The notes under the pieces were generated by a model that was not told where the DNA came from, did no database searches, and was given only the letters and a program-made list of their open reading frames with translations. 64,000 bases of DNA, from positions 70,299-134,298 of the IMG/VR virus record IMGVR_UViG_2547132519_000001. The stretch is one strand, 5' to 3'. A program made the position numbers and the translations under genes. This document shows, piece after piece, positions 2,041 through 51,151 of this stretch; position 1 is the first letter of the stretch, and the number at the start of each line of letters is the position of its first letter. The DNA is from a virus (lineage: Duplodnaviria > Caudoviricetes).

Positions 2041-2053
2041 AAAGGAGATTTTT

Positions 2054-3341: not shown

Positions 3342-3349
3342 GAGATTTT

Positions 3350-3571: not shown

Positions 3572-3584
3572 GGGAAACAGTAAG

Positions 3585-3842
3585 ATGAAAACGTTATGTG
3601 ATTTAGAAGAGATGAAGAACAAAGGGCACGATTCTTATGAAAATTATTATGATTATTTTATCGCATACTTATCACATTGCTACGTGTCTAAACTGAGCGG
3701 ATTTGCAATTGTAAAATCAGAATTGTCAAAATGGGATAATGAGTCTCAATTTGTTATATTAACAAAGCTGATTGAAGAATTGAGAGAGATGGATATGCAG
3801 TCTGGGTATGATAAACTATTAGAGTTGTTAAATGAAAATTGA
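3585..3842 (+). CDS. hypothetical protein
   Basis: 85-aa ORF. Confidence 0.6.
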   Translation: MKTLCDLEEMKNKGHDSYENYYDYFIAYLSHCYVSKLSGFAIVKSELSKWDNESQFVILTKLIEELREMDMQSGYDKLLELLNEN

Positions 3843-4041
3843 GATTCAAGGAGGAAACCAAGTGAATAGCTTTGAAAAGGAACAAGATAAAATTTTAATG
3901 TTAGAAAAGATGAAAGAAGATTTCTGGGAAACTAAGACTAATGAAGATTCATCATACGAAGAAGTAGAAAGAGATTTTAATGAAATGATAATAGCACATG
4001 AGGCTGATGAAAGAGAAATGGGTATAGAAGAAGATGTATAA
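3832..4041 (+). CDS. hypothetical acidic protein
   Basis: 69-aa ORF; true start may be the GTG after GGAGG. Confidence 0.55.
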   Translation: MKIEIQGGNQVNSFEKEQDKILMLEKMKEDFWETKTNEDSSYEEVERDFNEMIIAHEADEREMGIEEDV

Positions 4042-4230
4042 GATGGAAGATTAAAATCTAAGATTTAAGGCGTTGTTTTCATAAAATTTTAAGGCGGATT
4101 TAGACACTAACGAAAGATCCTATTATAATTGGATAGGAAATATACCGGTGTCTAATTGTGATGTATACTCAGCAAAAGGATATGTGATTTTGCAAAGGCA
4201 AGATGAAGTTTTAATATAAGAGGTGTAATT

Positions 4231-4635
4231 TTGATAAACGAAAATCAAGTTGTTGACTATATCTGTAAATATTTAGAGGACAATAAATATACTGTTGATG
4301 AGCATCGAAATACCTATGAAAGGGGTTATGACATTGTCGCATTTAGCAAAGACGGTAAAAAGCTAATTATTGAAGCCAAGGGTGGTACAAGTTCAAAGCC
4401 TGGAACAAATCGTTTTGGGAAGGATTTTGATAGTAAACAAGTTAGACATCATATTGCTATGGCACTTTATGCGGTTGGTAAAGCCATAACCTCTGATCCG
4501 GAATGTGAAGTTGGTATTGCAATACCTAAAAACGATGAACACATAAAGGCTTTGAAAAGAATACGGAAGGTTATTGATGTTCTGACGATTAGAGTTTATT
4601 GGGTTTCCTCTAATGGTGAAGTTACTGTTGAATAA
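4231..4635 (+). CDS. PD-(D/E)XK restriction-endonuclease-fold protein
   Basis: Motifs E..V, GYDIVA, IIEAKG. Confidence 0.7.
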   Translation: MINENQVVDYICKYLEDNKYTVDEHRNTYERGYDIVAFSKDGKKLIIEAKGGTSSKPGTNRFGKDFDSKQVRHHIAMALYAVGKAITSDPECEVGIAIPKNDEHIKALKRIRKVIDVLTIRVYWVSSNGEVTVE

Positions 4636-4678
4636 TCATAATGAAACTAGGGATTTATTTAAAAAGAGGGGATTATCT

Positions 4679-5269
4679 GTGAAATTACTTAATTACTACC
4701 GCACCATTGAAAAATTCTGGCATATTGGGGAGAAATGGGATAAATTATCTCCTTCAGAAAAAAACGCTATTGAGTTTGCTCACACAAATATAAATCCAGA
4801 ACCAAATCGAATGGCTGCTGATGGAATTCACTACTCTTTAGAATATTGTCTTGCACATTCGGGGGAAAGAATCAATGAAAGATATCGTCGTGACAGGCCA
4901 GATCCGATTGATTTACAGATTGCTGATATGATTGCTAACCATAGAACTAAAATTCCCGTCGTACTTTATCGGGGCGTATGTGAAGCTGTCTTTCGTAAGA
5001 TGTGTGAAAATGCACAACATATAGACAATGCTGATTTTTATGAAAAAGCATTTTTACAAACATCTCTTGTAAAAGGACATGAAATCAAGTCACAATACCA
5101 CTTGAGAATCTACGTACCAGAGGGGGCACAGGCAATTTATTTGGGAAATGTGAACTACGAACAGAAATACTATGAAGTAGTTTTGCAGTGTGGATCAAGG
5201 CTCAAAATCATTTCCATGGACAATAAATATATAAATTGTAGGCTTTTATTAGAATATGAATATAAATAA
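4679..5269 (+). CDS. ADP-ribosyltransferase (VIP2/C3-like R-S-E fold)
   Basis: VLYRGV, FLQTSL, YYEVVL motifs; GTG start after GAGGGG SD (ORF track 4613..5269). Confidence 0.7.
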   Translation: MKLLNYYRTIEKFWHIGEKWDKLSPSEKNAIEFAHTNINPEPNRMAADGIHYSLEYCLAHSGERINERYRRDRPDPIDLQIADMIANHRTKIPVVLYRGVCEAVFRKMCENAQHIDNADFYEKAFLQTSLVKGHEIKSQYHLRIYVPEGAQAIYLGNVNYEQKYYEVVLQCGSRLKIISMDNKYINCRLLLEYEYK

Positions 5270-5293
5270 TTGATTTAATATTATGGGGGAAGC

Positions 5294-6619
5294 ATGGATA
5301 CAACTGACGATATTCTGAATAGACAAGTTTTTCTGGAAAACCTAAAAAAAATAGTGGAGATGCTATCTAATGAAAGAAAAAGTAGCACGTTTGCAATTAA
5401 CGGTGAATGGGGAAGTGGTAAATCGTTCGTACTAAAACGCTTTATAGAAGATATTGAAAATATTCAATCAGAAGATACGGTGTCGGAGAAATATTTAGTA
5501 TTTTATTATGATTGTTGGAAATATGATTATTATGAAGAACCATTAATCGCAATTATAGCAGCGATGTTTGAAATGGCAGAAGAAAAGTTAAAGTTTCTTA
5601 GTACAACATATGATAAAACAATGAAAGCGACTTGGAATACTGTAAAGAATAGCTTGGAAACTATAGCTGGAGAGTTTTGTAAAAGCAAAATAGGATTTGA
5701 TCCATATAAGTTTATAGGTGATGTAAAAAAGGAATATAAGGAGGTAACAAATAGTAGACACGAATTTGATAATATGTTTTCTTTTAAATTAACTCTTGAT
5801 ACTATAAAAAAACAATTGCAGAGATTAGCAAATAATCATACTATTATTATTATAGTTGATGAAATCGACAGATGCTTGCCAGTATATGCGATTAAAATAC
5901 TCGAGCGATTGCATCATACTTTTTTTGATATTAAAAATGTTATAGTGATAATAGCAGTTGATGGTGATCAATTGGATAATACAATCAAACAAATTTATGG
6001 GCAAAATACCAACGTCAATAGATATCTTAAAAAATTTATAGATTTCAAATTAAACTTAGATATAGGCAAGACTAATTTAAATTATGCAGAAAAATATTTA
6101 TCTTATTTTAGTAAATTCTATGTTAACTCAGAATTATATGAAGTAATGGAGGTCCTAGCAAGTTTACTTGATAATATTGATATGAGAACACAAGAAAAGT
6201 TGTTCAATAAGGCCGATACTATACATAGGATTGTTAGTAGTGAGAAAAATGATATCTCTTTGTTATTTTTTGAAATGATGTGGATAATTTTGACTTATAA
6301 ACAAGATTCTCAAAATCTTAGGTGGGTAGTAAGTGGGGATAACAGTTTTAAAATTACTAGAAGTGAAAATGACATGGAAATTAAAATTAAGGAAATTGCT
6401 GATCAATATTGTGGGCCTTCTTGCGCAAGAATTGATGGTAAAGATTATTTAATTGTTAAAAATTCAGCGGTGGGTAAGTCGTTTTTTTACTTATCTTCAA
6501 TATACAATAATTTAGAAAATGGTACTTGTGGAATCCACTTTTTTGATAACGCAAATGAATTAATGGATGAAATATTAAAGGCTCAGAATTTTGTTTCTCT
6601 GACGTACCTAATTCAATAA
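5294..6619 (+). CDS. KAP-family P-loop NTPase
   Basis: Walker A GEWGSGKS, Walker B IIVDEIDRC, YLKKFID. Confidence 0.85.
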   Translation: MDTTDDILNRQVFLENLKKIVEMLSNERKSSTFAINGEWGSGKSFVLKRFIEDIENIQSEDTVSEKYLVFYYDCWKYDYYEEPLIAIIAAMFEMAEEKLKFLSTTYDKTMKATWNTVKNSLETIAGEFCKSKIGFDPYKFIGDVKKEYKEVTNSRHEFDNMFSFKLTLDTIKKQLQRLANNHTIIIIVDEIDRCLPVYAIKILERLHHTFFDIKNVIVIIAVDGDQLDNTIKQIYGQNTNVNRYLKKFIDFKLNLDIGKTNLNYAEKYLSYFSKFYVNSELYEVMEVLASLLDNIDMRTQEKLFNKADTIHRIVSSEKNDISLLFFEMMWIILTYKQDSQNLRWVVSGDNSFKITRSENDMEIKIKEIADQYCGPSCARIDGKDYLIVKNSAVGKSFFYLSSIYNNLENGTCGIHFFDNANELMDEILKAQNFVSLTYLIQ

Positions 6620-6715
6620 AATCATCGTTTTACGAGATTAGAAATAAACACTTGTCAAGACATTAGCGTCTTGTGGGTTGAAAATGTTGGTTTAGTAGGG
6701 TTTGTAAATAGTTAG

Positions 6716-6894: not shown

Positions 6895-8496
6895 TCAAAT
6901 AGTACCTTTATTCAAGCCACAGGATTTTTGCATTGCTTCTGACCAAGGCATCAGTTCTTCCAGGATACTATCGGGCTCATTTTTGTAGTCCAGCATCTTA
7001 GTCATAACTGTTTCCAGATAAAGACGGATGTTTAATCCATTTGCTTTGGCTGTTTCTGCAAGCGTGTAAACAATTGCACTTGCTTTGGCACCTTTTACAG
7101 TGTCATGAAAGAGGAAGTTTTTTCTTCCCATAACATATGATTTCACGGCTCTTTCAGCTGCGTTATTACTAATGGAGCATCTTCCATCAAGGAGGTAATT
7201 CTCCATATACGATTTTTGGTTTTGGGCATAGTTAATTGCCTTGGCAAGCTTTGATCCGCCAAGGGCATTTATCCCATTCACCCACTTCCAGAATGCATCC
7301 AGTACAGGTCGCTCCAGTTCAAGACGCTTTTTCTGTCGCTCTTCTGGTTCTAAGTCTTTCAGTTCTTTCTCTATCTGAAAGAGTTGGTTGCAGTAGGAAT
7401 AGCCTGTGTAGGCTTCAGATTTTTCGGAGCATGATCCCTTCTTCTTGGGAATCGCTTCGAACATATATCTTCGAAGATGTGCCCAGCACCCGCATCGGGT
7501 AATGTCACTCAAACGGTTGTATCCGCTGAAGCCGTCCGTATGGACAAACCCGTGATAATCAGCAAGGAACTTTGCTGCATGATAGCCGCCCCTTGATGGT
7601 TGATACTCGTAAAGCACAATCCGGTGCTCTTCAAATGCACCGCTGGTGTACAACCATATGTAAGACTTTGATTCTGGAGTCTTGCCATCTTCATTCAAAA
7701 CCTGGCATGTCGTCTCGTCTACATGAATGACGGACTGCCTAAGAAGATACTCATGATATCTCTCATAAACGGGTTCCAGATATTCTTCTGCGCATGTATT
7801 GAACCAGCTGGCAATGGTTCCACGATTCAGCTTGACTCCCAGCTGTGCCCAATCCTGCTCCTGACGATAAAACGGAAGATAGTTCGTACACTTCTGATAC
7901 ATGATGTAAGAGACCGCTGTAGCAGAAGCCATACTGTGATTGATGAGTGGCTTTGGCACAGGTGCCTTCTCAATGGTTGAATCACCATCTTCACGGCACT
8001 GTGGACATGCATAGCTATGCTGTACGTATTGGACACGTTCCACTTTTGCTGGAGTGATATGAATCTCTTCACGAACAACTTTGGAGCCGATATCTTCCAT
8101 TTTAGTATTACAGTAAGGGCAGTTACGAGAATCACCTTCCAGTAAAAGCTCAATGGTCCTTATCGGTACATTTTTTGTAAGTTCATCATGCGTAGCACGG
8201 GATTTTTTCTTCTCATGCGCTGTCACATTGATCATTTCCGGTTCGTGAACGTGTTCATCAATTCCCAACTGATCGAACAAGCTGAGTTGTCCGTCAATGT
8301 AAGGTAAGTTCGATGATTTCTCACTGGAAATACCAAAGATTTTTCGTTTCAGTTCATTAATTGTTTCCGTGAGGTTTGCAATGGTCTGGTTTAATTGTTC
8401 CATCTGATGATCTTTTGCTTCCAGCTGTTTGAGCAGATTACTGACCAGCAGATTCATGTTAAGATCTTCGGTTTCAACAGACTTTTTCATGACCAT
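6895..8496 (-). CDS. tnpC: IS66 transposase TnpC
   Basis: Leucine-zipper N-terminus, CPYC/CPQC Zn finger, HVDET, HTDGFSGY, CWAHLRR, NNAAER. Confidence 0.95.
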   Translation of the reverse strand: MVMKKSVETEDLNMNLLVSNLLKQLEAKDHQMEQLNQTIANLTETINELKRKIFGISSEKSSNLPYIDGQLSLFDQLGIDEHVHEPEMINVTAHEKKKSRATHDELTKNVPIRTIELLLEGDSRNCPYCNTKMEDIGSKVVREEIHITPAKVERVQYVQHSYACPQCREDGDSTIEKAPVPKPLINHSMASATAVSYIMYQKCTNYLPFYRQEQDWAQLGVKLNRGTIASWFNTCAEEYLEPVYERYHEYLLRQSVIHVDETTCQVLNEDGKTPESKSYIWLYTSGAFEEHRIVLYEYQPSRGGYHAAKFLADYHGFVHTDGFSGYNRLSDITRCGCWAHLRRYMFEAIPKKKGSCSEKSEAYTGYSYCNQLFQIEKELKDLEPEERQKKRLELERPVLDAFWKWVNGINALGGSKLAKAINYAQNQKSYMENYLLDGRCSISNNAAERAVKSYVMGRKNFLFHDTVKGAKASAIVYTLAETAKANGLNIRLYLETVMTKMLDYKNEPDSILEELMPWSEAMQKSCGLNKGTI

Positions 8497-9297: not shown

Positions 9298-10298
9298 ATT
9301 TTAAAATCCTCCAAGAAAATATGGAGTAAAATGATACAAAAGTTTGAAGTAAAATAGCAGTGAAATGCTACAACCTTTGTTGTTCAAGAACAGAACTTAG
9401 AGTGAATTACTCCAACTGTCCTTATTTTACAGCAAAAAAAGTCAATTAGCACGACGGTAGATTATGTTGCGCTTACATTCAATTAGAGGTAGTTAAGAAG
9501 TCAAAACAGAATCCAAAGCTGAAGACAGACGGAGCAGAAAAGCAGACTCCTAATAATAATTCTGTAGATCGTTGGGTATACCCCATTAGAGAAAAATCAG
9601 ATGTTAAAAAGTGTATTGATTATTTACATGAGAAAGCATTGTCAGCAACCAGGTTGGACACACAAAGAGCTGCATATCGTGATTGGTTTCTTTTTGTCGT
9701 TGGAATCAATGTTGGATTACGTGTGTCAGATTTGACTCGGCTTAAATGGGATAATATTTTTGAGGCTGACATGAAAACTTTTGTCGATGGAAGAAATAAA
9801 GAAGAACAGAAAACTGGTAAAATGAAATTAATCTGTCCAAACGAATATATGAAGAAAGTAGTCAAAGAGTATTTGTATTTCTCTGACGTTGAACCAAAAG
9901 CTGACAAGTACGTGTTCCTGTCTGGGAGAAAGAATAAAGACGGGGGATATTCGCAGATTTCGGATGCAGCCGTTGAGAAAATGATTAAGGAAGTAACAGG
10001 GGCTTGTGGCATCACAGGAACCTACAACACTCATAGTCTTAGGAAAACCTATGCTTATCACAAGTATATGATGTATGTGCGGAATAATGATCCTCTCTCT
10101 CTAGTTAAGGTACAGAAGGATCTAAATCATAGGAATAGCAGCGATACGGCTAGGTATCTTGGTATTACGAGAGACGAGCAGATTAAAAGTAGTATGGAAC
10201 TTGGAGAATATTGGGATTTATAATGGAATAGAGGCTTGAAGTGTGGTAAAATAGAGGAAAATAAGTAATTGCGGCAATATAGAAAGGAGGAGTTGTAC

Positions 10299-21966: not shown

Positions 21967-22473
21967 ATGAAGAAGACGCTTATTGTAGTAGACATGCAAA
22001 ATGATTTTATTGATGGCTCTTTAGGAACTATTGAAGCACAGTCTATCGTGAAAAAAGTAAAAGATAAGATTACGGAATATCAAAATCGTGGAGATGAAAT
22101 AATTTTTACAAGAGACACTCACCTTTCTAATTATTTACATACTAATGAAGGAAAGCATCTTCCAATTGAACATTGTATTTTTGGAGAAAAGGGTTGGTTT
22201 ATTGCAGATGGATTAGAAGTTCCAAACTGTAAATATGTTGATAAATCTACGTTCGGATGGTGTTTCTGGAATAACATGAAATTCGATCAGGTAGAACTAA
22301 TTGGTCTATGTACTGATATTTGCGTAGTCTCTAACGCTTTAATTCTTAAAGCGTCATTCCCTAATATTGAAATTACAGTAGATGCAAGTTGCTGTGCAGG
22401 AGCCACACCGGAAACCCATAAAGCCGCATTAGAAACCATGAAAATGTGTCAGATTAATGTGATTGGAGAATAA
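21967..22473 (+). CDS. pncA: nicotinamidase / isochorismatase-family cysteine hydrolase
   Basis: VVDMQNDF, TRDTH, HC, DKSTFG, GLCTDICV. Confidence 0.85.
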   Translation: MKKTLIVVDMQNDFIDGSLGTIEAQSIVKKVKDKITEYQNRGDEIIFTRDTHLSNYLHTNEGKHLPIEHCIFGEKGWFIADGLEVPNCKYVDKSTFGWCFWNNMKFDQVELIGLCTDICVVSNALILKASFPNIEITVDASCCAGATPETHKAALETMKMCQINVIGE

Positions 22474-23281
22474 CATGATAAAAATAGAAAGCTGCATTGT
22501 AGATGTTAAGAAGTTTCCAGATGGGACATTACTGTTCAAGGAGGATATTCCAATTGATTTTCGGGATTATAGGGAGGCAACTCTTGAGTGGCTTTTTGAA
22601 AACAACGAAGAATTGATTGTCCTTATTTATCTTGTAAAGCATCTAAAATCACATGGCCTGAATAGTTTATACCTTAAGATGCCATATATTCCTAATGCTA
22701 GGCAGGATAGGGTAAAAAATACAGAAGATGTATTTACACTAAAATACTTTGTAGAGATTATTAATTATCTGGATTTTGATTCTGTAACTGTTCTTGATCC
22801 TCATTCAAACGTAAGCGAAGCTTTAATTAATAATATTATTGTCAACTCACCAGAAAAATTAATCTCTAAAGTAATTTCAAAAATAGGTGAAGATAATTTA
22901 ACAATGTTCTATCCTGACGAGGGAGCTATGAAAAGATATTCAACATTGTTTGATATACCTTATGCTTTTGGTATTAAGAAGCGAGATTGGGAAACAGGTA
23001 AAATCAATGGATTAGACGTATCTGGAATGTTGGAGTTTATAAAAGGAAGAAAAGTTTTAATTGTAGATGATATTTCAAGTCGTGGAGGTACTTTCTATTA
23101 CAGTGCAAAGAAACTAAAAGAATTAGGCGCAAAAGAAGTCTACTTGTATGTATCTCATTGCGAAAATACTATTCTTGAAGGAGATGTATTAACTAGTGGC
23201 TTGATTGAGAAAGTATATACAACAAATAGCATTTTTACAGAAAATCATGAAAAGATAGAGGTAATGAATTATGAACAATAA
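22463..23281 (+). CDS. prs: ribose-phosphate pyrophosphokinase-like protein (candidate Adps)
   Basis: KFPDG, MPYIPNARQDR, LDPHS, PDEGA, IVDDISSRGGT. Confidence 0.85.
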   Translation: MENNMIKIESCIVDVKKFPDGTLLFKEDIPIDFRDYREATLEWLFENNEELIVLIYLVKHLKSHGLNSLYLKMPYIPNARQDRVKNTEDVFTLKYFVEIINYLDFDSVTVLDPHSNVSEALINNIIVNSPEKLISKVISKIGEDNLTMFYPDEGAMKRYSTLFDIPYAFGIKKRDWETGKINGLDVSGMLEFIKGRKVLIVDDISSRGGTFYYSAKKLKELGAKEVYLYVSHCENTILEGDVLTSGLIEKVYTTNSIFTENHEKIEVMNYEQ

Positions 23282-24743
23282 AATCAACCCTATGTTATTG
23301 ATAGATTTCTATAAGGCAGTTCATAGTGATATGATTAACCCCAAGATGACCAAATCAGTGTCATATTATACTCCAAGAATGAGCAGAGTAGATAGGTGGG
23401 ATAAAGTAGTAATGTTTGGACTGCAAATGTTTTGCAAAACATGGCTTGTTGATTATTTTAATGATAATTTCTTCTATCTAAACAGGGAAGAAGTTATATC
23501 TGAATATGAAAGAGTATTGGACGCTTCTCTCGGTAAAGGAATTTACGATTCAATTAAAATTAGAGAGATACATAAGTTAGGGTATTTACCTATCGAAATT
23601 GTTGCTTTACCAGAAGGAACATTGGTGCCAATTCATGTTCCAATGTTCGGAATAACTAATACTCATCCGGGCTTTGCATGGCTTCCACAAGCCTTAGAGA
23701 GCTTGATTTCAGCTGAGATGTGGTATCCGCAAATTACTGCTACTGTTGGCAAGACGTACCGAGATATTGTCAATAAGTATTATAGTCTGACTTGTGATGA
23801 TAATATTCCAAGGGCAAAAGCATTGGGAGCATTTGATTTTAGAGGTGATATGTGTGTAGATGCTGCATTAAAAGCTGGTGCAGGTTGGTGCATGTCATTC
23901 TTAAATACGGCTACAGTTCCTGTCATTCCATATTTAGAGGATATGTTTAATTGCGATTGCACGAGTGAACCTGTCGCATTTGGGTCAGTTAGTACAGAAC
24001 ATTTTGTGATGTGTAGTAACTATGCGATTGACGGTGATGAAATTACGTTCCTAAAGCGGTTACTAACAGAGTTGTATCCACATACTAGTTTTTCTTGTGT
24101 TCTTGATAGTTATGATTACTGGAATGTGATAGATAATATACTTCCACAATTATATGATGAAATTATGGATCATGATGGTTGTATGATGATGCGCGGAGAT
24201 TCTGGTGATTGTGTTGATGTAGTTACAAAAACGGTATTTAAACTTTGGAATCTGTTTGGAGGGACTTTAAACAAAAAAGGATATAAAGTGCTTGATCCTC
24301 ATGTCAAAGCAATTTATGGGGATAGCATTACGATTCAGAGGTGCGAAGAAATATATAAGATTCTTATGGAGAATGGATTTGCTTGTAGCAATGTGGTTTT
24401 AGGAGTAGGATCTTTCTCTATGCACTGCATTGAAGAAAATAATATATTAAAACCTTTTACAAGAGACACGTTTAGTTCATGTATTAAAGCTTGTTATGCA
24501 GAGGTAGACGGTAAGTGCTATCCAGTGTTTAAAGACCCGAAAGATGGCGGATTTAAAAAAAGTCAAAAAGGAATATGCCATGTACATTTAAATGAAGATG
24601 GAGAATTAGTGTATAAGGATGAATATACAACTGAAAGTATCCCAGAAGGTAATTTATTGCAGACAGTCTTTAAAGATGGCGAACTTATTAAAGAGTATTC
24701 ACTTAAAGAAATTCGAGATATTTTGAATGGAGGAAAATTTTAA
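23271..24743 (+). CDS. nadV: nicotinamide/nicotinate phosphoribosyltransferase-like protein (NAMPT/NadV family, candidate Namat)
   Basis: DFYKAVH, DFRG, STEH, DSYD, RGDSGD, YGDSI, GVGS, KKSQKG. Confidence 0.85.
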   Translation: MNNKINPMLLIDFYKAVHSDMINPKMTKSVSYYTPRMSRVDRWDKVVMFGLQMFCKTWLVDYFNDNFFYLNREEVISEYERVLDASLGKGIYDSIKIREIHKLGYLPIEIVALPEGTLVPIHVPMFGITNTHPGFAWLPQALESLISAEMWYPQITATVGKTYRDIVNKYYSLTCDDNIPRAKALGAFDFRGDMCVDAALKAGAGWCMSFLNTATVPVIPYLEDMFNCDCTSEPVAFGSVSTEHFVMCSNYAIDGDEITFLKRLLTELYPHTSFSCVLDSYDYWNVIDNILPQLYDEIMDHDGCMMMRGDSGDCVDVVTKTVFKLWNLFGGTLNKKGYKVLDPHVKAIYGDSITIQRCEEIYKILMENGFACSNVVLGVGSFSMHCIEENNILKPFTRDTFSSCIKACYAEVDGKCYPVFKDPKDGGFKKSQKGICHVHLNEDGELVYKDEYTTESIPEGNLLQTVFKDGELIKEYSLKEIRDILNGGKF

Positions 24744-25480
24744 TGTTTGATGCAAAGAAAATAAAAAATGAGATAGTAGAGTGGATTAAAAAGTTCTTTG
24801 AAAAGAATGGCAATGGCTGTAACGCTGTTGTTGGAATTTCAGGCGGTAAAGATTCAAGTGTCGTTGCTGCATTGTGCGTAGAAGCCCTTGGAAAAGAACG
24901 GGTTATTGGAGTATTAATGCCAAACGGGGAGCAGAATGATATTGATATGGCAAAACTTCTAGTGAATACTTTAGATATTAAATACCACATTGTAAATATC
25001 CACGATGCAGTTAAGGCCATAAAATATGAAGTGAAATCTAGTCTTAATGATCATTGGAGCATACAGTCATCAACGAACTTACCAGCTAGAATTAGAATGG
25101 CTACATTATACGCAGTATCTCAAACCGTTAATGGACGTGTAGCTAATACTTGCAATCTTTCTGAAGATTGGGTCGGTTACGCAACCCGTTATGGAGATGC
25201 GGCTGGAGACTTTAGCCCATTGTCTGGATTAACAGTTTCTGAAGTAAAAGCTATTGGATATGAACTTGGTCTTCCAACTAGCCTTATTGAAAAAACTCCT
25301 AGTGATGGTCTTTGTGGTAAATCAGATGAAGATAATCTTGGTTTTACTTACGATGCTTTAGACAGATATATTCGTACAGGGGAAATTGACGATCAAGATG
25401 TAAAGGTCAGAATTGACAATATGCATTTAAAAAATAAGTTTAAATTGGAGCTTATGCCAAGTTATAAAATTATCAGTTAA
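24743..25480 (+). CDS. nadE: NH3-dependent NAD+ synthetase
   Basis: GISGGKDS, NLPARIRM, GYATRYGD, KTPSDGL. Confidence 0.92.
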   Translation: MFDAKKIKNEIVEWIKKFFEKNGNGCNAVVGISGGKDSSVVAALCVEALGKERVIGVLMPNGEQNDIDMAKLLVNTLDIKYHIVNIHDAVKAIKYEVKSSLNDHWSIQSSTNLPARIRMATLYAVSQTVNGRVANTCNLSEDWVGYATRYGDAAGDFSPLSGLTVSEVKAIGYELGLPTSLIEKTPSDGLCGKSDEDNLGFTYDALDRYIRTGEIDDQDVKVRIDNMHLKNKFKLELMPSYKIIS

Positions 25481-31524: not shown

Positions 31525-32145
31525 ATGTCAGAAAATTATTTTAAGGAACTTTATAACGTCGATGTTAAGGAAAAAGTAAAGCAGAAAAATGGGTTGAATT
31601 ATTTGTCATGGGCTGCATGTTGGGCAGAGGTGAAAAAGCTTCACCCTGATGCCACATATCGGATTTATGAAGAAGTTCTTACTTATGCTCCAGATGGATC
31701 AACACCTATGAAAACTCGTCCATGGTTTGACGATGGGAGAACAGGCTGGGTAAAGACAGGAGTTACGATCAATGGTATTGAACATATTGAGGAATTACCA
31801 GTAATGGATTTTAAAAATAGTTCCATTTCGGCAGATAATATTAAGTCTTCGGAAGCAAACAAAGCAATTCAGAGATCATTAACTAAGGCATGTGCGCGGC
31901 ATGGGTTGGGATTGTACATATATGAAGGTGAAGATCTCCCAGAAGAGAGCAAGGAATTAGAAAAACTTAGAACTGAATGCTATAAATTGGTCACAGAAAG
32001 AGCTAAATTATCTGAAGCGGCAAAAAATAAAGTGGCTGAGTTCTGTAAATCCGCTGACGAAAAAGCAAACGGCGATCCTAGAATCATGGAAGACATTGAA
32101 ACATTAAAGACACTTAAAACACAGCTTATGGGAATTAGAAAATAG
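31525..32145 (+). CDS. sak: Sak/DUF1071-type single-strand annealing protein
   Basis: LNYLSWA, LPVMD, NKAIQRSLTKACARHGLGLYIYEGEDLP. Confidence 0.85.
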   Translation: MSENYFKELYNVDVKEKVKQKNGLNYLSWAACWAEVKKLHPDATYRIYEEVLTYAPDGSTPMKTRPWFDDGRTGWVKTGVTINGIEHIEELPVMDFKNSSISADNIKSSEANKAIQRSLTKACARHGLGLYIYEGEDLPEESKELEKLRTECYKLVTERAKLSEAAKNKVAEFCKSADEKANGDPRIMEDIETLKTLKTQLMGIRK

Positions 32146-35675: not shown

Positions 35676-36488
35676 TTGGGAGAATATAAAAAACAGATAG
35701 ATGAAATGGAGTTTTCATTTAGTCGCTGCAACTCATTTGAAGGTTGTAAATATGAATGGTATCTAAATTATCTACTCAAAGATGAAAATGGTAAACGTGT
35801 TTATGATAATGAGCAGAATTTCTATGCTGCATTTGGATCATTTTGTCACGCTATTTTAGAACGGATTTTTACTGAAGAGATGAATGTTGAAAATTCAGTT
35901 GATTATTACAAGGTTAATTTTGAAGAAGAAGTTCAATGTTATGATGTCCCGGAGTCGACTAGAGAGAAGTATTTCTATTTGGGATTAGATTACTTCGCTA
36001 CTCTCGATTTAACTTGGTTAGATGAATATGAAGTGCTAGGTGTGGAAAAAAAGTGTGAATTCACCATTAATGGTCGCCGTTTTATTGGTTACATAGACCT
36101 TTTACTAAGGCATAAGAAATCTAAAGAGATTATTGTGATTGATCATAAATCTAGCGAGTATCCACTAGGTAAAAAAGGACAGGTATTAAAAAAGAAGCTT
36201 TTAGATTATGAGAGATATAAAATTCAGCTTTACATGTATTGTGAACAAGTATTTAAAGAATATGGAGTCTACCCATCTAAAATAGTTTGGAACTACTTTA
36301 AAGACAAGAAATGGTTGGAACTTCCATTTATATATGATGAATTCAAAGATGCAAAGGAGTGGGCGATAAAAATAATTGATTCAATGTATCTGGAAGAAAA
36401 TTTTGTGCCATCGATGGATTATTTCTACTGCAATAATTTATGCGGTTTTAGAAACTCCTGCGATTATAAGTTAATGGGAGGCGAATAA
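35676..36488 (+). CDS. PD-(D/E)XK RecB/Cas4-like exonuclease
   Basis: GYIDLL, IDHKS, QLYMY, C-terminal Cys cluster. Confidence 0.85.
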   Translation: MGEYKKQIDEMEFSFSRCNSFEGCKYEWYLNYLLKDENGKRVYDNEQNFYAAFGSFCHAILERIFTEEMNVENSVDYYKVNFEEEVQCYDVPESTREKYFYLGLDYFATLDLTWLDEYEVLGVEKKCEFTINGRRFIGYIDLLLRHKKSKEIIVIDHKSSEYPLGKKGQVLKKKLLDYERYKIQLYMYCEQVFKEYGVYPSKIVWNYFKDKKWLELPFIYDEFKDAKEWAIKIIDSMYLEENFVPSMDYFYCNNLCGFRNSCDYKLMGGE

Positions 36489-40511: not shown

Positions 40512-41243
40512 TTGAAGAAAGAAATATTTGAGAAAGAATTAGGATATATTGCAACAGAAGAAGTAAGAAAATTGGTCGAAGTTGGTTTGGAGAATTTGCC
40601 AGACTATTTCTTTTCAATGGCCGCTTCCACTACCGGAAAGTATCATCCGTCATATGCTCTTGGAGAAGGTGGGCTTGTTAGGCACACAAAAGCTGCGGCG
40701 CTAATTGCGAATTACATATGTCAGCTGGAACAGACACAGAATGAGTTTACTCAGGAAGAGCGTGATTGTATGATTGCTGGAACCATTCTACATGACGGAC
40801 ATAAGGAAGGAAATGGTGGAAGTAAGTTTACTGTGCATGAACACCCTCAAATTTGTGCAGAATGGATTTTAACAAATACTATCTTCGATAGCTTCAGCAT
40901 GGATTATAGATATATGATTGCTGATGTTGTCGCTTCTCATATGGGACAGTGGAATGAAAACAAACGAAGTAAGGTCGTCTTGCAGAAGCCAACGACTCCG
41001 ATGCAAAAGATCGTTCATCTTTGTGATTACTTAGCATCAAGGAAAGATATCGAAATCTTATTCGATTCCAATATGGAAGCAACAAAACCAGATATCAATA
41101 CGTACACCTTTGCTTTTGGTAAATATAAAGGACAGTTGATTACGGAAGTAGCAAAGGATCATAAGGATTATTTAGAGTGGATGAGAGATAATATGACATT
41201 AAAGGAACCATTGAAATCTTTTGTTTTAGAATTGTCAAAATGA
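40512..41243 (+). CDS. HD-domain phosphohydrolase
   Basis: ASTTGKYH, HT, LHD, SHMG, DYLAS; C-terminal FGKYKG. Confidence 0.85.
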   Translation: MKKEIFEKELGYIATEEVRKLVEVGLENLPDYFFSMAASTTGKYHPSYALGEGGLVRHTKAAALIANYICQLEQTQNEFTQEERDCMIAGTILHDGHKEGNGGSKFTVHEHPQICAEWILTNTIFDSFSMDYRYMIADVVASHMGQWNENKRSKVVLQKPTTPMQKIVHLCDYLASRKDIEILFDSNMEATKPDINTYTFAFGKYKGQLITEVAKDHKDYLEWMRDNMTLKEPLKSFVLELSK

Positions 41244-41302
41244 AGCCCGAATGAAAAAATGGGCTTCCGTTTTATAAGCCATTAAACTTAAGGAGCAAAG
41301 AA

Positions 41303-41470
41303 ATGAATATTGGTGATGTTATTGAAGAGATGATTTATTTGAAAAGCAAATATGGAATTAGTTTTCCAGATGATAATGCAATTAATGATGCTTGTAATAT
41401 ATTATCAAGATTGCCAAGAAAATGTGTTGTGGCAGAGTGGATTATTACAAACTCTCAGAACGATGAGTAA
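41303..41470 (+). CDS. small hypothetical protein (55 aa)
   Basis: Read by hand, AAGGAG SD. Confidence 0.5.
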   Translation: MNIGDVIEEMIYLKSKYGISFPDDNAINDACNILSRLPRKCVVAEWIITNSQNDE

Positions 41471-41484
41471 ATAGAACAGTGGTT

Positions 41485-42474
41485 TTACTGGAAATTAGTA
41501 CAATCTATATGTTTTCTGGAGGCATAAATAAGAGTGTTAACGCCCTCAAACTTTTTAGGCTCACACTGCCTGGCAGCTATTACAAGGCCCCTAAGGCGCT
41601 TTAATGAATCAATATCTTCTGGTTTTCTTTTATAGTAATTTAACTCATTAATTACCTTTAAGCTAAGATGATTGGGGATTCGTATTCTGCCTTCAGGTGT
41701 GATAATAGCACCGGTAACGGACTTAGGAGAACTACTTGTGTAATATTTTGTCTTGTTGCGTGATATTTTGTAATTATATTTTGAAATAATATTATAAATT
41801 ATTTCTTTTTGTTTATGAGAAATTCTATTACATGAAGAAAATGTCATGTCATCGACGTATACAGACATGGTTATTCCATTGCAATCGCAGAAATATTGTA
41901 TTTCATCAAACATGTTGTGATTGACAAGGTAGGATAATATCTGGCTAGTAGGAGCTCCAGAAATTAGGTGGTTTGATGTTTTAATTCCTTTAAATTGTAG
42001 AAAGTGCTCAACAGACTGAATATCTTTTATTTTACATAGTGTTAAATCGATGGTTGTGAAGTTAGTGAAAATTTTGGCAACGTCTGGTGTCATCATCAAA
42101 TCATTATTAAAAAAGTCAAAGACAGTTTCACGGGTAATGCATGGGAAAAATGATGACAAATCTATTTTAAAAAGATATTGATTATCTTTATGTATTTTCG
42201 CATTATCAATATATGATTTACCCTTTATACCAGAGAATATATTATAAGGAACCTCAATTTTACTAAGCTCCTTTTTAATAATTCTTTGAATAAGTTTCAG
42301 AGAATACGAAGGAGCTTCAATTAAACGAGGTTTCGGTTTAGTCGCAATATACGGACTGATATTTTGAGCTATATAGTTTTGTTTTAAATAGTCTTTAGTG
42401 GGGATTTTAAGCAGTTTAATAACATAGGACTTTGATGACTGTCTATAAAGATTTGGGTTTGTTATATATATCAT
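41485..42474 (-). CDS. retron-type reverse transcriptase
   Basis: RLIEAP, NAKIH (retron region X NAxxH), KIDLSSFFP, SGAPTS, YVDD, VTG (region Y); ATG at 42474 (ORF track 41485..42513). Confidence 0.9.
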   Translation of the reverse strand: MIYITNPNLYRQSSKSYVIKLLKIPTKDYLKQNYIAQNISPYIATKPKPRLIEAPSYSLKLIQRIIKKELSKIEVPYNIFSGIKGKSYIDNAKIHKDNQYLFKIDLSSFFPCITRETVFDFFNNDLMMTPDVAKIFTNFTTIDLTLCKIKDIQSVEHFLQFKGIKTSNHLISGAPTSQILSYLVNHNMFDEIQYFCDCNGITMSVYVDDMTFSSCNRISHKQKEIIYNIISKYNYKISRNKTKYYTSSSPKSVTGAIITPEGRIRIPNHLSLKVINELNYYKRKPEDIDSLKRLRGLVIAARQCEPKKFEGVNTLIYASRKHIDCTNFQ

Positions 42475-42506
42475 AAATTTCACTCTTTTCAAATAAATGC
42501 TGGTGA

Positions 42507-42701
42507 TTAGCAATCACTTGCCATGCTGATTAATAAACGGATAAATTCAGCACGAACAACGGGATTACAAATAGACGCAACCAGTGCAAAAGAAATTAAA
42601 GCTACAATGATACAGGTTAAAGACTTTCCATCAAGCGTAATGTTGCTAAAGATATTGATATTTACAGTGACATTACTAGGTTCATCCGTTTTCCTTTTCA
42701 T
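42507..42701 (-). CDS. 64-aa single-TM small protein, candidate retron effector
   Basis: Perfect SD AAGGAGGTG; hydrophobic helix LTCIIVALISFALVASIC; directly upstream of the RT. Confidence 0.7.
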   Translation of the reverse strand: MKRKTDEPSNVTVNINIFSNITLDGKSLTCIIVALISFALVASICNPVVRAEFIRLLISMASDC

Positions 42702-42710
42702 AATTATCAC

Positions 42711-43049
42711 CTCCTTGTTATTATTGGCTCCAAAATGGAGTCTCCCAATTCCATTAATAACAAAGAGATACTATAGCGTGCATCTTTTCACACCAGCACA
42801 ATTTTTCTCCCAAAAAAATGAAGGAAAGCGAACATATCTCAACTACACCTGCACTGCTTAATAAAGCTTATGTATCCAGTACATGATGCTTCGCCGTGCT
42901 ACCTCACTATTCTTGGTGTTCTAAAGGAGAATCACGACGCTCTCTGTATGCCGTGAGTGCCCCTTTTAATATTACTCCAAAACATCTGGAGTACCATTCG
43001 TCAACTATAACGAACCAAATGGGAGTAAATCTGCTATACAACACTGGTA
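42711..43049 (-). ncRNA. candidate retron ncRNA (msr/msd-like structured leader)
   Basis: ~340 nt between a consensus promoter and the small ORF; hairpins 42973-42993, 42997-43014 and 42711-42767. Confidence 0.6.
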
Positions 43050-43055
43050 ATTACC

Positions 43056-43084
43056 ATTATATACCAAAATTTTATTGATGTCAA
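43056..43084 (-). promoter_or_regulatory. consensus sigma-A promoter of the retron unit
   Basis: TTGACA-N17-TATAAT on the minus strand. Confidence 0.85.
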
Positions 43085-43170
43085 TTTTTATAACACAATT
43101 GAACAGTAGTATAACGAACAGTTTAAATTAACAAATAAAAGCCCGATATCTTCGGGTGAAAGGAGAATAA

Positions 43171-43413
43171 ATGTACATTGAAACAGTAGGAGAACTCAAG
43201 GCGTTTATTGAAAGCATGGATAATAATACTCCTTTAATTTCAAAATCAGGAAATTTTGAACTGAATGAAGAAATAGTATGTGGAGCAGATATTTCAATAA
43301 ACAAATTTAGAATTGAGAGTAAAGAGTTTTTAGATGCGTTTGATTACGAAAAGTATCGTAAAGACGTGTACACACATGATATAAACGGAACTGAATGTTT
43401 AAAGATATCATGA
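43171..43413 (+). CDS. hypothetical protein
   Basis: 80-aa ORF with SD. Confidence 0.65.
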   Translation: MYIETVGELKAFIESMDNNTPLISKSGNFELNEEIVCGADISINKFRIESKEFLDAFDYEKYRKDVYTHDINGTECLKIS

Positions 43414-43642
43414 AACGAGTATTTTATATGAAATGTGGAAGAATATATTGACAAATGGTTAAAGGAGGATTTACATGGACAACAACAGTGAGGATGATAC
43501 ATTTGAAAAATATCTCAGAGACATTGAAGGAATTACTCTCAACGATTTCGCAAGCAAAAGTGAATTTATACAAGAGGAAATACACAATAATTATTTACAG
43601 AATTGGACAAATAATAAGAGTAATTTAAATGGGAGGTAATTT

Positions 43643-47281: not shown

Positions 47282-47658
47282 TGTCTGTATTTCATAAGGA
47301 GGGGAGAATAATAACAAGCAGCTACATAATAGATAAACTAACTAAAGCAAAAAGAAAATTTAAAGCTGTTGAAAATTGGAGGAGTGCAGAGTTGTTTTGC
47401 ATTGGTTGTGATAAATCATTAGGTGCTCATGATTTAATATATGAATCACACGAAAGTTTAAAATACTGTGGTGGGTGTATAAAACAACTTATAAAAGAGA
47501 CTCCGATTAAACTATCAGATGGATTAACAATTTTAGAAGACTACGGGTTAAGCGTAGTACTAAGATATGAAGAATTAAGGCAAGAAGAGACAAAGCAATG
47601 CTACTTCACATCTAAAGGAAGATTTATAAAGATTAAAAGTAAGCGTTGGTATATTTAA
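47281..47658 (+). CDS. hypothetical protein
   Basis: 125-aa ORF with CxxC pairs. Confidence 0.6.
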   Translation: MSVFHKEGRIITSSYIIDKLTKAKRKFKAVENWRSAELFCIGCDKSLGAHDLIYESHESLKYCGGCIKQLIKETPIKLSDGLTILEDYGLSVVLRYEELRQEETKQCYFTSKGRFIKIKSKRWYI

Positions 47659-47802
47659 TATAATCAACAACGATTAGCAGATCGTAAGTAAATGTAAATA
47701 CCATAAAAATCAGCAAAAATTTAAAAACAGCATTGAAACTCCGCATTTATCTGATTTGTAAGTGTCAGTAAAGAGTAATATACAATTTAAGGAGATGATT
47801 AA

Positions 47803-48759
47803 ATAGTACAAATATTAGAGCTATTTGGCGGCATAGGATCTCCAAGGGTAGCATTAAGAAACCTTGGCGTGCCGACAAGGGCTATAGATTATGTAGAAAT
47901 AGACGAGAAGGCTGTCCAGAGCTACAATGCAATGTTTGAAAATGAGCTGGCATATAAAACTCAATCTGTCGTTGGTTGGAATTTAAGACCAGATATTTTG
48001 ATTCATGGCAGTCCATGTCAGCAAGTCTCAATTTGTGGTTGGATAAGTCCCGCAGGTAAGCCCAAAGGGGCAGAAGAAGGTTCTGGAACTGAATCATCTC
48101 TTATGTGGGAAACTATACGCATAATTGAACAAATGAGAGAATGGAAACCTCAAGTTGTTATTTGGGAAAATGTCAAAGGTGTCAACTTTAAAGGGATGAA
48201 GAAGAACTTTCAGAGATATTTAGATGAAATGGTTAGACTTGGTTATACAAATAGTTATAAATGTCTTGATGCAAGAGATTTTGGAATCCCGCAAGCAAGA
48301 GAAAGAGTATTTACAATATCCTGTCTAGATGGGAAAGAGTTTAAATTTAATAGGCTAAAATCTACTGCCATGAGACCTCTGAGTAGTTTTCTTCAAAAGG
48401 AAGTGTCGGATCGTTACTTGGTAACTCAACCTAGCATATTAAAGGCTATCGGTAATTCAGGAGTTAAGAGAGCAACGGTGATCAAGGATTTTGCTTATAC
48501 AATTACGGAAAGGCAAGATAGATGCCCAGCGCAAATTATTGATTGCGGCAATGGGAAATATAGGTTTCTTACTGAGCTTGAATGCTGGAGACTATTTGGA
48601 TATTCAGATGAAGATTATTACGCCGCTGAAAGAGTAAATCCTAAAAAGAAAAAAGTAATTGTAAATAGAGCTTTATATAAACAGGCAGGAAATAGTATAG
48701 TGGTTCCTATTTTTGAAGAAATATTTAGAGTATTACTAAGAGATTACATAGAGCATTAG
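47803..48759 (+). CDS. dcm: DNA (cytosine-5) methyltransferase, ATA start
   Basis: Motif I ELFGGIG lies upstream of the tracked ORF in frame from ATA 47803; GSPCQ, WENVKG, QARERVF, QAGNS. Confidence 0.9.
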   Translation: MVQILELFGGIGSPRVALRNLGVPTRAIDYVEIDEKAVQSYNAMFENELAYKTQSVVGWNLRPDILIHGSPCQQVSICGWISPAGKPKGAEEGSGTESSLMWETIRIIEQMREWKPQVVIWENVKGVNFKGMKKNFQRYLDEMVRLGYTNSYKCLDARDFGIPQARERVFTISCLDGKEFKFNRLKSTAMRPLSSFLQKEVSDRYLVTQPSILKAIGNSGVKRATVIKDFAYTITERQDRCPAQIIDCGNGKYRFLTELECWRLFGYSDEDYYAAERVNPKKKKVIVNRALYKQAGNSIVVPIFEEIFRVLLRDYIEH

Positions 48760-48865: not shown

Positions 48866-49705
48866 ATGGAAAACAATAATAGAGAGAATATAATAAAGCC
48901 AGTAAAATGTGAAATATATCGTGATTCAATGCAGAATTACAAAAAGTATGGAATTAGACCTGCTCAGTTAATTATTGCAGATGTTCCTTATAATGTGGGA
49001 AATAACTTTTATGGTTCGAATCCTATGTGGTATAAGAACGGAGACAGTTCAAACGGAGAAAGTAAGCTTGCGGGAAAAGCGGCTTTTAGCTCTGATTTTA
49101 ATTTCAATCTTTATGAGTACTTCCACTTTTGCTCCAAAATGTTGAAGAAGGATGATAGTAAACCTGTTCCAAGAGGAAGAAGTTCAAATAGTCCATGTAT
49201 GATTGTGTTTTGTGCATTTGAACAGATTCAGACATTAATTGATGCTGCTAAGAAACACGGGTTTGTGAATTATATACCTTTGATTTTTGTGAAAAATTAT
49301 AGTCCACAGGTTTTGAAAGCAAATATGCGTGTTGTAGGGGCAACAGAATATGCCCTATTGTTCTACCGTAACAAACTTCCGAAATTTAGAAACGGATTAC
49401 GGATTGATGAAAATGGTAAGAACATCCGTGGAACAGGCCGCATGGTTTTCAATTGGTTCACATGGGAGAAAGATGGGAAGAACGTTCCCAAAATTCACCC
49501 GGCGCAAAAGCCTGTAAATGTATTGAAAAAATTAATTGAAACATTTACTGATCCGGGAGATGTTGTTATTGATCCATGTTGTGGTTCCGGTGCAACTTTG
49601 AGGGCAGCTCACGAATTAGGTAGATCCGCTTATGGATTCGAGATTGACAGAAACTTCTTTACCAGAGCCAAAAATGAAATGCTTGTGTTTGGTGACGGAG
49701 AATAA
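48866..49705 (+). CDS. N4-cytosine/N6-adenine DNA methyltransferase
   Basis: ADVPY, HPAQKP, DPCCGSG. Confidence 0.9.
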   Translation: MENNNRENIIKPVKCEIYRDSMQNYKKYGIRPAQLIIADVPYNVGNNFYGSNPMWYKNGDSSNGESKLAGKAAFSSDFNFNLYEYFHFCSKMLKKDDSKPVPRGRSSNSPCMIVFCAFEQIQTLIDAAKKHGFVNYIPLIFVKNYSPQVLKANMRVVGATEYALLFYRNKLPKFRNGLRIDENGKNIRGTGRMVFNWFTWEKDGKNVPKIHPAQKPVNVLKKLIETFTDPGDVVIDPCCGSGATLRAAHELGRSAYGFEIDRNFFTRAKNEMLVFGDGE

Positions 49706-50055: not shown

Positions 50056-50084
50056 ATTATATTTCATATTTTTCGATTTGTCAA
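50056..50084 (-). promoter_or_regulatory. consensus sigma-A promoter
   Basis: TTGACA-N17-TATAAT on the minus strand. Confidence 0.8.
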
Positions 50085-50107: not shown

Positions 50108-51151
50108 ATTATAGAAACAATTTTACATACCAATAGTGGAAAAATTATAAATGGTGAAAACATAGAGTTGTTAGAAACATTAGAAATAAATTCAGTTGAC
50201 AATTGTATCTCAGATTTTCCATATGATTTATCGTTTATGGGCAAGAAGTGGGACAATACTGGGAACTTCTATGATTGGAATAAGGAGAGAGCAACAAAAT
50301 TAATTAAAGTGATTAAACCTGGTGGATACGTTGCAATATTTGGGCACCCCAAAACTAATCATAGGATGAAATGTGCATTTGAAGATTCAGGATTTAAAAT
50401 TGTTGAAGAAATTGATTGGATCTATCTTACTGGAATGCCTAAGAATCAGGATATAGGCAAGCTCTTTAACAAGGTTAAAATAGATGAATTAGCAAAGAAG
50501 TGGAATGGTTGGAAAACATCTGGGCTTAAACCAGCGCACGAACCAATCACAATATTTCAGAAACCATTAGAAGGAACATATGTCCAAAATATTGAGAAAC
50601 ACAGCTGTGGCGGAATGAATATTGATGCGTGTAGAGTTCCTATATCAAAGGAAGACATTGATATGCTAAATGCCAAAGCGTCTAAGGTTCCAACGACTAA
50701 TTATTCTGATAGAGATGACCGCATATATGGCAAATACGCAGAAGATAAGGCCATGCCTCCTAATGAATCAGGTAGGTTTCCATCAAACATTGTGGTTGAC
50801 GAGTATGTGGCTGAATTTTTAAATGATCAGATAGAAGATGGAAGCTAATATTTTACCGTCATCAAATATGAACCGAAGATTTCTCCTTCAGAAAGAAAAC
50901 TTCCTAACGGTGATCGCAATCCACATGTTACACCTAAACCAGTAGCATTAATCAAATGGTTGATTAAATTACTTACTCCGATTAACGGCGCAACCATTGA
51001 TATTACCGCTGGAAGCTGTACTCATGCTGTGGCTTGTGAAGAACTCAATAAAAATGACGGTTATGGATTGAAATACATAAATGTAGAATTGATGAATACT
51101 GAAGAAGAGCCTTATTGTAGCGTTGGAGAAATGAGAGTAAAAGCAGTTTAG
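50108..51151 (+). pseudogene. N4/N6 DNA methyltransferase with one in-frame TAA (50846)
   Basis: SDFPY, LKPAHEPI, GRFPSN, then in the same frame after TAA: HVTPKP, DITAGS; probable ATT/ATA start after AAGGAG. Confidence 0.8.

Follow-up and report, generated by a model that had tools for sequence, protein, structure and literature searches.

What is a reverse transcriptase (RT) doing amid the replication genes of a phage? The question is raised by a unit at positions 41,485 to 43,084 of a 64,000-nt stretch of viral DNA (Duplodnaviria; Caudoviricetes; positions 70,299 to 134,298 of IMG/VR record IMGVR_UViG_2547132519_000001; hereafter the window), where a promoter, a long leader, a gene for a small protein (SP) and an RT gene follow one another on the minus strand, within a plus-strand arm for replication and nucleotide metabolism of a phage of more than 134 kb. 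An earlier, sequence-only reading had taken this unit for a minimal retron variant. Our analysis indicates that it is probably a reduced type VI-family retron that lacks the helix-turn-helix (HTH) gene and is carried, as an accessory cassette, within a large Clostridia phage's replication module. This assignment is built on the RT family, the gene order, the absence of an HTH gene, an RNA fold with covariation, a co-varying repeat and matching contigs from RNA libraries, all of them observed.

NAxxH, Y(V/A)DD and VTG are diagnostic motifs of retron RTs, and the three that had been picked out from the letters are readable in the translation as NAKIH, YVDD and VTG, with N91, H95, V207-D208-D209 and T254-G255 invariant in 26 homologues. 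Pfam recognises nothing beyond a generic RVT_1 domain in the RT. A search of a large protein collection gave 587 homologues of it, and scans of viral and genome collections yielded 99 loci with flanking DNA; the 68 loci whose RT is at least 44% identical, the window included, are referred to here as the clade (L002 and L005 being one and the same contig). For the window RT, PADLOC ranks RT_VI first (1.6e-70, 235.6 bits, model positions 3-277 of 279), the next type being III-A at 133.5 bits, and RT_VI is also the top model in 8/8 other clade RTs tested (227-251 bits vs about 120-138). In a quick maximum-likelihood tree of 87 RTs, with types II-A, III-A and XI as outgroups, all 58 unique clade RTs fall on a single branch (SH-aLRT 99), and this branch and the other type VI-like loci, which mostly bear HTH, group together to the exclusion of the outgroups (SH-aLRT 99). 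The earlier placement of the RT among the retrons is thus borne out by PADLOC and the tree, and narrowed to type VI. Type IV, which we considered on account of the membrane effector, was rejected: PADLOC RT_IV is not one of the 25 top models given for the window RT or for any of the 8 clade RTs. Within a phage collection, blastn of the unit found no match, and tblastn of the RT found distant RTs only (at most 36% identity).

The small open reading frame (ORF) is tied to the RT throughout the clade. A hidden Markov model (HMM) built from ten SPs matches just upstream of the RT and in its orientation in 66/68 clade loci, and the two loci without a match hold no upstream DNA, so that SP stands beside the RT, as the sequence-only reading had expected, in 66/66 loci where this is testable. 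From SP stop to RT start there are 30-60 nt in most clade loci (32 nt in the window) and an overlap in some, and therefore no gene fits between the two. An HMM of the type VI HTH, built from the HTH proteins of the distant loci, reaches 88-154 bits just ahead of the RT in 26 of those loci; the 68 clade loci yield no more than four weak matches (14-27 bits), none of them in this position. Among 87 flanking ORFs of 16 clade loci, Pfam detects HTH_3 (Cro/C1-type) near one locus, on the opposite strand, and one further sampled locus carries transposase-type HTH domains in an insertion sequence element; the neighbourhood of these 16 loci is otherwise unconserved, with integrases, a relaxase, ParB, TnpV, methylases and housekeeping genes. 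Gene spacing, the HTH model and the Pfam flanks all agree with the lack of an HTH gene that had been remarked on from the letters. Because the gene order is kept and the flanks are unconserved, the cassette is self-contained, and it is the lineage, not this phage, that is marked by the lack of HTH. The proposal of a minimal retron variant accordingly stands as regards an HTH-less form of type VI, and falls as regards a speciality of this phage, since the form is the rule in a large Clostridia clade.

Nearly all RTs at least 44% identical to that of the window derive from Clostridia of gut and rumen (Oscillospiraceae, Lachnospiraceae and relatives), to which six viral contigs are added, and the cassette resides mostly in bacterial chromosomes, contexts resembling integrative and conjugative elements (ICE-like) and other mobile contexts. 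In the distant loci, where the RT is 28-43% identical and the sources are Proteobacteria, Gastranaerophilales and others, the published order SP-HTH-RT prevails. The definition of type VI retrons in the main text of PMC7736814 names an HTH partner together with small auxiliary proteins. The HTH gene occurs in about 78% of type VI entries, according to the main text of one preprint (10.64898/2026.04.27.721009), and is thus typical of the type, not universal; excerpts of a 2026 metagenome census place 23/93 type VI RTs in Bacillota and give HTH_3 as the top accessory in only 21/93 (PMC13712802). What the sequence-only reading had stated of type VI, namely a repressed small toxic protein and usually an HTH gene, agrees with the main texts of two preprints (10.1101/2025.10.22.683967, 10.64898/2026.04.27.721009). 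Two cassettes, L023 and L057, lie on contigs binned as Bacteroidales and Hallerella (Fibrobacterota), all other named clade loci being Bacillota; this placement could reflect a binning error or transfer by a mobile element. Two distant type VI-like RTs, L080 (an alphaproteobacterial metagenome-assembled genome) and L082 (Jeotgalibacillus), also stand without HTH, behind a different hydrophobic small ORF, which suggests that loss of HTH, or failure to gain it, happened more than once.

SP itself is present as predicted, with a single strong hydrophobic segment (KD19 2.52, residues 27-45), and consists of a basic N-terminus, one transmembrane (TM) helix and an amphipathic C-terminal helix. Clade SPs measure 61-75 aa and share a MKKADKP-like basic start and a C-terminal CCPELLADFVRWI-like stretch; KD19 exceeds 1.6 in 50/50 unique SPs whose start codon was placed (of 51; the start of L074 is unplaceable). 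An AlphaFold model of SP from 49 sequences shows a disordered N-terminus and helices at residues 25-45 and 47-63, at a moderate confidence (mean pLDDT 66). Searches of SP against Pfam, PADLOC and PHROGs returned no family, and the ESM Atlas only unnamed Bacillota clusters.

Upstream of SP, the perfect TTGACA-N17-TATAAT promoter described from the letters is indeed present. The window contains two such sequences vs 0.11 expected from 100 shuffles, none of which held two or more. A TAnnnT -10 box stands in a common alignment register in 51/51 unique relatives, and conservation begins right after it. The promoter would put the transcription start near ~43049, which makes the leader, given earlier as ~340 nt with hairpins, about 348 nt long up to the SP ATG. 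The second perfect promoter of the window (50056-50084, minus strand) lies in a 460-nt gap between methyltransferase ORFs 48866-49705 and 50168-50848, with no minus-strand ORF of at least 28 aa behind it; it may drive a small RNA or be the sign of another inserted unit.

The conserved fold of this leader was examined in an alignment of 51 unique sequences running from the -10 box to just beyond the SP ORF. The RNAalifold consensus comprises 69 pairs, in which 96.7% of cells form standard pairs vs 32-50% when the partners are slid, and compensatory (two-sided) changes occur in 41/69 pairs vs 15-20 in the slid controls; 0/500 shuffles reached the observed values of pairing or compensation. The single-sequence fold energy is only modest (z = -2.0; 3/100 shuffles equally good), so that the structure is supported by comparative data and not by fold energy. 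Read from its 5' end (Table 1), the RNA begins with a short arm resembling the a1 arm of retrons, followed by an AUAG-CAGAU motif in which G22, C23, A24, G25, A26 and T27 are invariant or nearly so. Helix 1, which closes an msr-msd-like domain, shows two-sided changes in 5/6 pairs, and helices 2-4, the msr-like hairpins inside it, are compensatory in 12/15 pairs with 92-97% of cells paired. Between these hairpins and the conserved 3' flank lies a hypervariable msd-like region that gives no blastn alignment to relatives at 60-65% RT identity, both of its flanks aligning; its length ranges from 75 to 169 nt among the 51 relatives, and its fold is only moderately better than that of shuffles (median z = -2.07, 26/51 below -2).

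Two long-range helices bind the SP gene to its leader. The first joins inverted repeats 1 and 2 (IR1 and IR2) around the whole gene: the 8-bp repeat seen earlier at 42498-42505 / 42791-42798 is perfect and extends to 9 pairs in the alignment, with 99.8% of cells paired and 5/9 pairs compensatory. The compensations are found in L028, L034, L053, L074, L079 and L025, for example GCUGGCG/CGCCAGC in L028 and GCUGAGG/CCUCAGC in L034. The second, helix 6, joins the leader to the SP coding sequence by 10 pairs, 5 of them with two-sided changes, at 97.8% paired, and further supported helices lie inside the 3' part of the SP gene. IR1 has a second potential partner, as had been supposed of the transcript 5' end: pairing of the a1-like arm with IR1 (alignment columns 7-15 with 322-330) is possible in 98.5% of cells vs 13-54% when slid, mostly through wobble and one-sided changes. 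Rfam (E-value mode) gave chance-level matches to unrelated families only over 41000-43600.

The Shine-Dalgarno (SD) sequence of SP is itself enclosed in a hairpin. The 17-nt inverted repeat 42711-42727 / 42751-42767 lies where it had been placed, is 88% complementary, and pairs the GGAG of the GGAGG core (42714-42710); within it, the inner hairpin of this riboregulator is compensatory in 4/5 pairs. The loop also carries the second copy (42741-42748) of an 8-nt direct repeat, UUGGGAGA, whose first copy (DR1), both in the window and in its relatives, occupies the 3' end of the msd-like region and not a loop. In 49/51 relatives the two copies agree over at least 7 identical nt, and they change together, the variants being GGGAGA, GGGAAGUC, GGAAGUC, GGAGGUC, GGGAUGUC, GGGGAGUUC and GGGAAGA. 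DR1 ends 6 nt before IR1 in 45/51 sequences; if the a1-IR1 pairing is the priming stem, DR1 falls within the first ~20 nt copied.

Table 1. Features of the retron cassette, in window coordinates
Feature	Positions	Strand	Details
Sigma-70-type promoter	43056..43084	-	TTGACA-N17-TATAAT, 12/12 match
a1-like 5' arm	43041..43049	-	UACCAGUGU; alternative partner of IR1
AUAG-CAGAU motif	43029..43037	-	between a1 arm and next helix; candidate priming-G site
Helix 1 5' arm	43021..43026	-	ACUCCC; pairs with DR1, closing the msr-msd-like domain
Two msr-like hairpins	42973..43015	-	helices 2-4
Hypervariable msd-like region	42819..42972	-	folds into long imperfect hairpins
Direct repeat copy 1 (DR1)	42806..42813	-	UUGGGAGA; 6 nt 5' of IR1, 3' end of msd-like region
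IR1	42791..42799	-	GUGCUGGUG; pairs with IR2
Helix 6 5' arm	42776..42786	-	long-range helix to SP coding region 42572-42582
SD-sequestering hairpin	42711..42767	-	loop holds direct repeat copy 2 (42741-42748) and inner hairpin (42728-42739)
SP, 64 aa	42507..42701 (including stop)	-	ATG 42701, stop 42507-42509
IR2	42497..42505	-	CACCAGCAU; begins 2 nt past SP stop codon
Retron-type RT, 329 aa	41485..42474	-	Pfam RVT_1 E = 1.2e-17

Promoter and IR2 together predict a hybrid RNA (hyRNA) of ~555 nt, from about 43049 to IR2 at 42497-42505, and its limits agree with those of contigs assembled from three RNA-type libraries of three studies. These contigs (537, 538 and 608 nt; 94-99% identical to the window) cover only 42504-43039, 42501-43037 and 42430-43035; they start at 43035-43039, and two of them stop within IR2, at 42501 and 42504. 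X2, a DNA contig of 5,519 nt from a different sample, is 94% identical, spans 41470-43124 and thus continues through the RT. That the RT is uncovered in the RNA contigs is no evidence of its being silent. Coverage of the Retron-Vpa2 hyRNA shows a similar pattern, being enriched over the msr-msd and SP regions in the main text of its description (10.1101/2025.10.22.683967). In most clade members a U-rich run follows IR2 (alignment columns 710-722; window 42485-42496), and the IR1-IR2 helix or a nearby hairpin might form the 3' end of the hyRNA, by termination or processing.

The cassette appears to be an addition to its phage. The window encodes a DnaB-like helicase, a primase, an exonuclease (35676-36488), a PolIII-alpha-like polymerase, an ERCC4 nuclease, an NAD ligase, an RNA ligase, methylases, NrdDG and a Sak-like single-strand annealing protein (SSAP; 31525-32145). 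The RT was found within 5 kb of the related phage ligase in 0/79 viral loci. In L106, the closest relative that keeps the neighbours (ligase 86% identical), the order is ERCC4-HD-orf55, other small genes and then the ligase. Because relatives stand without the RT and the L106 slot differs, we regard the retron as an accessory cassette in a variable slot. A second related contig, L002, matches 41475-43430 at 87% identity and then diverges. The only firm cassette boundary is at 41470-41475, 10-15 nt past the RT stop. A sharp end at 43124 was considered and rejected, as the loose end of X2 still resembles the window there. In L106 the slot (1276-6644) is filled by other small plus-strand ORFs, among them one of 147 aa that, judged by eye, we take to be macro-domain-like; the L106 ligase (1033 aa) has a large internal insertion of intein-like look.

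The phage record is labelled a provirus and has two tyrosine-recombinase genes. A transposase and these two recombinase genes lie at 6895-8496 (minus strand) and 9639-10223 (plus strand) of the window and at 47416-48003 (minus strand) of the record, consistent with that label; no gene of the serine recombinase family was found in the record. The phage, a large one of gut Clostridia, can probably lysogenise. At 22463-25480 the window also holds a cluster, by PHROG matches, for phosphoribosyl pyrophosphate synthetase, nicotinamide phosphoribosyltransferase and NAD synthetase, an NAD salvage set; phages are said to deploy such sets against NAD-depleting defences.

Retron-Vpa2 is the closest parallel in layout. 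Its hyRNA has a sequestered ribosome-binding site (RBS) and a conserved 7-nt direct repeat in the msd loop and the riboregulator loop, the repeat being located at the 5' end of the multicopy single-stranded DNA (msDNA); Zhang et al. propose, and leave as a hypothesis, that pairing of the cDNA copy with the loop releases the RBS (10.1101/2025.10.22.683967). The same text reports that phage SSAP and exonuclease genes trigger the system, that defence needs RT catalysis and msDNA appears on triggering, and that the HTH protein represses reverse transcription and is needed for viability (10.1101/2025.10.22.683967). The window unit shares with Vpa2 a single transcript with msr-msd and a repressed SP, an RBS in a stem-loop, an RT downstream, inverted repeats that tie the 3' end to the leader, and a direct repeat in the msd and the riboregulator loop. 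The two differ in that Vpa2 has an HTH gene between SP and RT whereas the window unit has none, in that the window SP has a clear TM helix and no detectable homology to that of Vpa2, in their hosts (Vibrio vs Bacillota and a phage) and in the length of the hyRNA (~470 nt vs ~555 nt).

In Retron-Sen3, as given by Garcia-Rodriguez et al., inverted repeats flank an SP that is made constitutively and neutralised by the HTH protein (10.64898/2026.04.27.721009). Sen3 and the cl2075 lineage resemble the window unit in the IR1-IR2 pair around SP, the sequestered RBS, the RNA-structure selection on SP's coding region and the variable msd-like segment; control by an HTH antitoxin, however, is impossible in the window unit, which has no HTH. 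The main text notes no significant IR1-IR2 covariation in cl2075 (10.64898/2026.04.27.721009), whereas the clade of the window shows the compensation described above. Phage carriage has precedents as well: excerpts of PMC8541194 describe SP-HTH-RT elements, assigned to type VI, on temperate P2-like and Mu-like phages. Like the window unit, these are phage-borne SP/RT pairs found in some phages and absent from close relatives; unlike it, they have the HTH regulator before the RT and reside in 33-38 kb temperate phages of Proteobacteria, while the window unit is HTH-less and lies in the replication module of a far larger phage.

Two further kinds of system bear some likeness to the unit. Ec48 is the name of a type IV retron. 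Type IV retrons consist of an RT and a 2-TM membrane protein and belong to the same RT clade 3 as type VI, according to the main text of Mestre et al. 2020 (PMC7736814). The window unit shares with type IV this broad RT clade and a membrane protein as the likely effector, but its effector has one TM helix, measures 61-75 aa across the clade and is embedded in the ncRNA (noncoding RNA) transcript. In type I toxin-antitoxin systems, a small hydrophobic toxin is encoded by an mRNA folded so that its SD is inaccessible. In the window unit, by contrast, no antisense RNA gene is seen, and the lock acts in cis and is coupled to an RT.

How might such a cassette work? By analogy with the studied type VI retrons, we infer msDNA synthesis, toxicity of SP, its unlocking, defence and a benefit to the phage; the use against competitors supposed from the letters would be a putative role. 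The single promoter would give rise to the ~555-nt hyRNA, which would comprise the msr-msd-like domain, the riboregulator hairpin and an SP coding sequence paired to the leader, and the RT message would be made by read-through. At rest SP would go untranslated, as in Retron-Vpa2. On a phage cue, and again on the model of Vpa2, the RT would copy the msd, beginning just 5' of IR1; the 5' end of the cDNA would be the complement of DR1 and could pair with copy 2 in the loop, opening the SD, and a membrane-active SP would then halt the cell, amounting to abortive infection. Peculiar to the clade would be an IR1 that pairs either with the 5' a1 arm, in a priming-competent state, or with IR2, in a locked state, and RNA structure may thereby take over the repressor job of the HTH. 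A bolder version, which we put forward only tentatively, is that RNA alone acts as sensor-lock and switch, the IR1 toggle replacing the HTH and the first ~20 nt of cDNA invading the loop to open the SD of a membrane toxin.

Several points weigh against the reading of the unit as a reduced type VI retron with such a switch. Missing from the tree are type IV and V RTs, which published work regards as the closest relatives of type VI, and the fork that joins the clade to the HTH-bearing group has a support of only 85, so that the clade may lie inside or beside type VI. Clade SPs bear no detectable similarity to the SP profiles of proteobacterial type VI retrons (hhalign probability 0.1%). In the SD stem (helix 7), 7/9 pairs are invariant among the 51 sequences, which speaks for constraint but, as covariation is absent, does not by itself show pairing. 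The changes in the a1-IR1 pairing are mostly one-sided, and 26/500 shuffles attain its paired fraction. Both direct-repeat copies further show complementarity to the 5' ACUCCC, so that their co-variation could reflect RNA-RNA pairing and not cDNA-RNA pairing. The RNA-library contigs are assemblies, one run being flagged 'probably DNA', and their coincident ends are a weak hint. Both studied type VI retrons need HTH for viability, and an HTH-less system may work differently. The phage's own SSAP and exonuclease, finally, belong to the protein classes that trigger Vpa2, which raises a problem of self-triggering: the phage may have to avoid triggering its own retron, or may exploit the triggering.

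The last point leads to an alternative that we consider improbable, namely that the same retron serves the lytic programme of the phage, triggered late by the phage's own SSAP and exonuclease, with an SP that is holin-like or depolarising or that excludes co-infecting phages. The phage does encode the two proteins, phage SSAP and exonuclease genes do trigger Retron-Vpa2 in the main text of its description (10.1101/2025.10.22.683967), the unit lies inside the replication module and not at a prophage end, and SP is small and single-TM. However, the cassette is found mostly in chromosomes and in ICE-like and mobile contexts without nearby phage replication genes, related phages do without it, which sets it outside a conserved lysis or replication programme, and a strong promoter of its own drives it from the opposite strand.

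A quite improbable explanation, in our judgement, is that the RT makes no msDNA at all, the leader being a locked membrane-toxin mRNA in the manner of type I toxin-antitoxin systems and the RT an RNA-binding regulator or an effector of the abortive infection (Abi) type. In the main texts of the two preprints, baseline msDNA is undetectable for the type VI retrons tested (10.1101/2025.10.22.683967, 10.64898/2026.04.27.721009); moreover, the toxin message is wrapped by IR1-IR2 and helix 6, the long-range pairs with the best support, and the priming G is not assignable. Yet the catalytic YVDD and the retron-type motifs are invariant across the 26 homologues, a long hypervariable hairpin lies between conserved flanks as in retron msd regions, and Vpa2, as its main text has it, requires RT catalysis for defence and makes msDNA on triggering (10.1101/2025.10.22.683967). 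Very improbable, lastly, is an SP that is a membrane anchor or accessory factor, the real effector being elsewhere or absent in a decaying system, for although SP has neither detectable similarity to known type VI SPs nor a family annotation, it stays intact beside the RT in all testable loci down to 44% RT identity, the flanking genes are unconserved, and an SD within an invariant hairpin is hard to explain for a harmless protein.

We return to the reduced type VI retron and what it would mean. When the main texts of both preprints and PMC7736814 were searched by term, and the literature more widely, no account of an HTH-less SP-RT form with a TM small protein emerged; the supplementary files, which may list members, lay outside these searches. 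Given the count of type VI RTs in Bacillota by the 2026 census (PMC13712802), the RTs themselves are already on record. The two studied type VI retrons both depend on their HTH protein, which in Vpa2 represses reverse transcription and in Sen3 is the antitoxin. The existence of a large HTH-less clade in gut Clostridia and their mobile elements suggests an RNA/DNA-based core mechanism, to which HTH is an add-on. The co-varying repeat and the two-partner IR1 supply specific mutable nucleotides with which msDNA-unlocked translation can be tested. If the RNA-only switch is true, the co-varying repeats would be comparative evidence for a DNA-triggered riboregulator, the two-gene cassette would be a minimal natural system in which to prove it, and a phage with its own SSAP and exonuclease would need to avoid or exploit self-triggering. 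For phage biology, the finding places a retron in the accessory slots of a large Clostridia phage's replication module.

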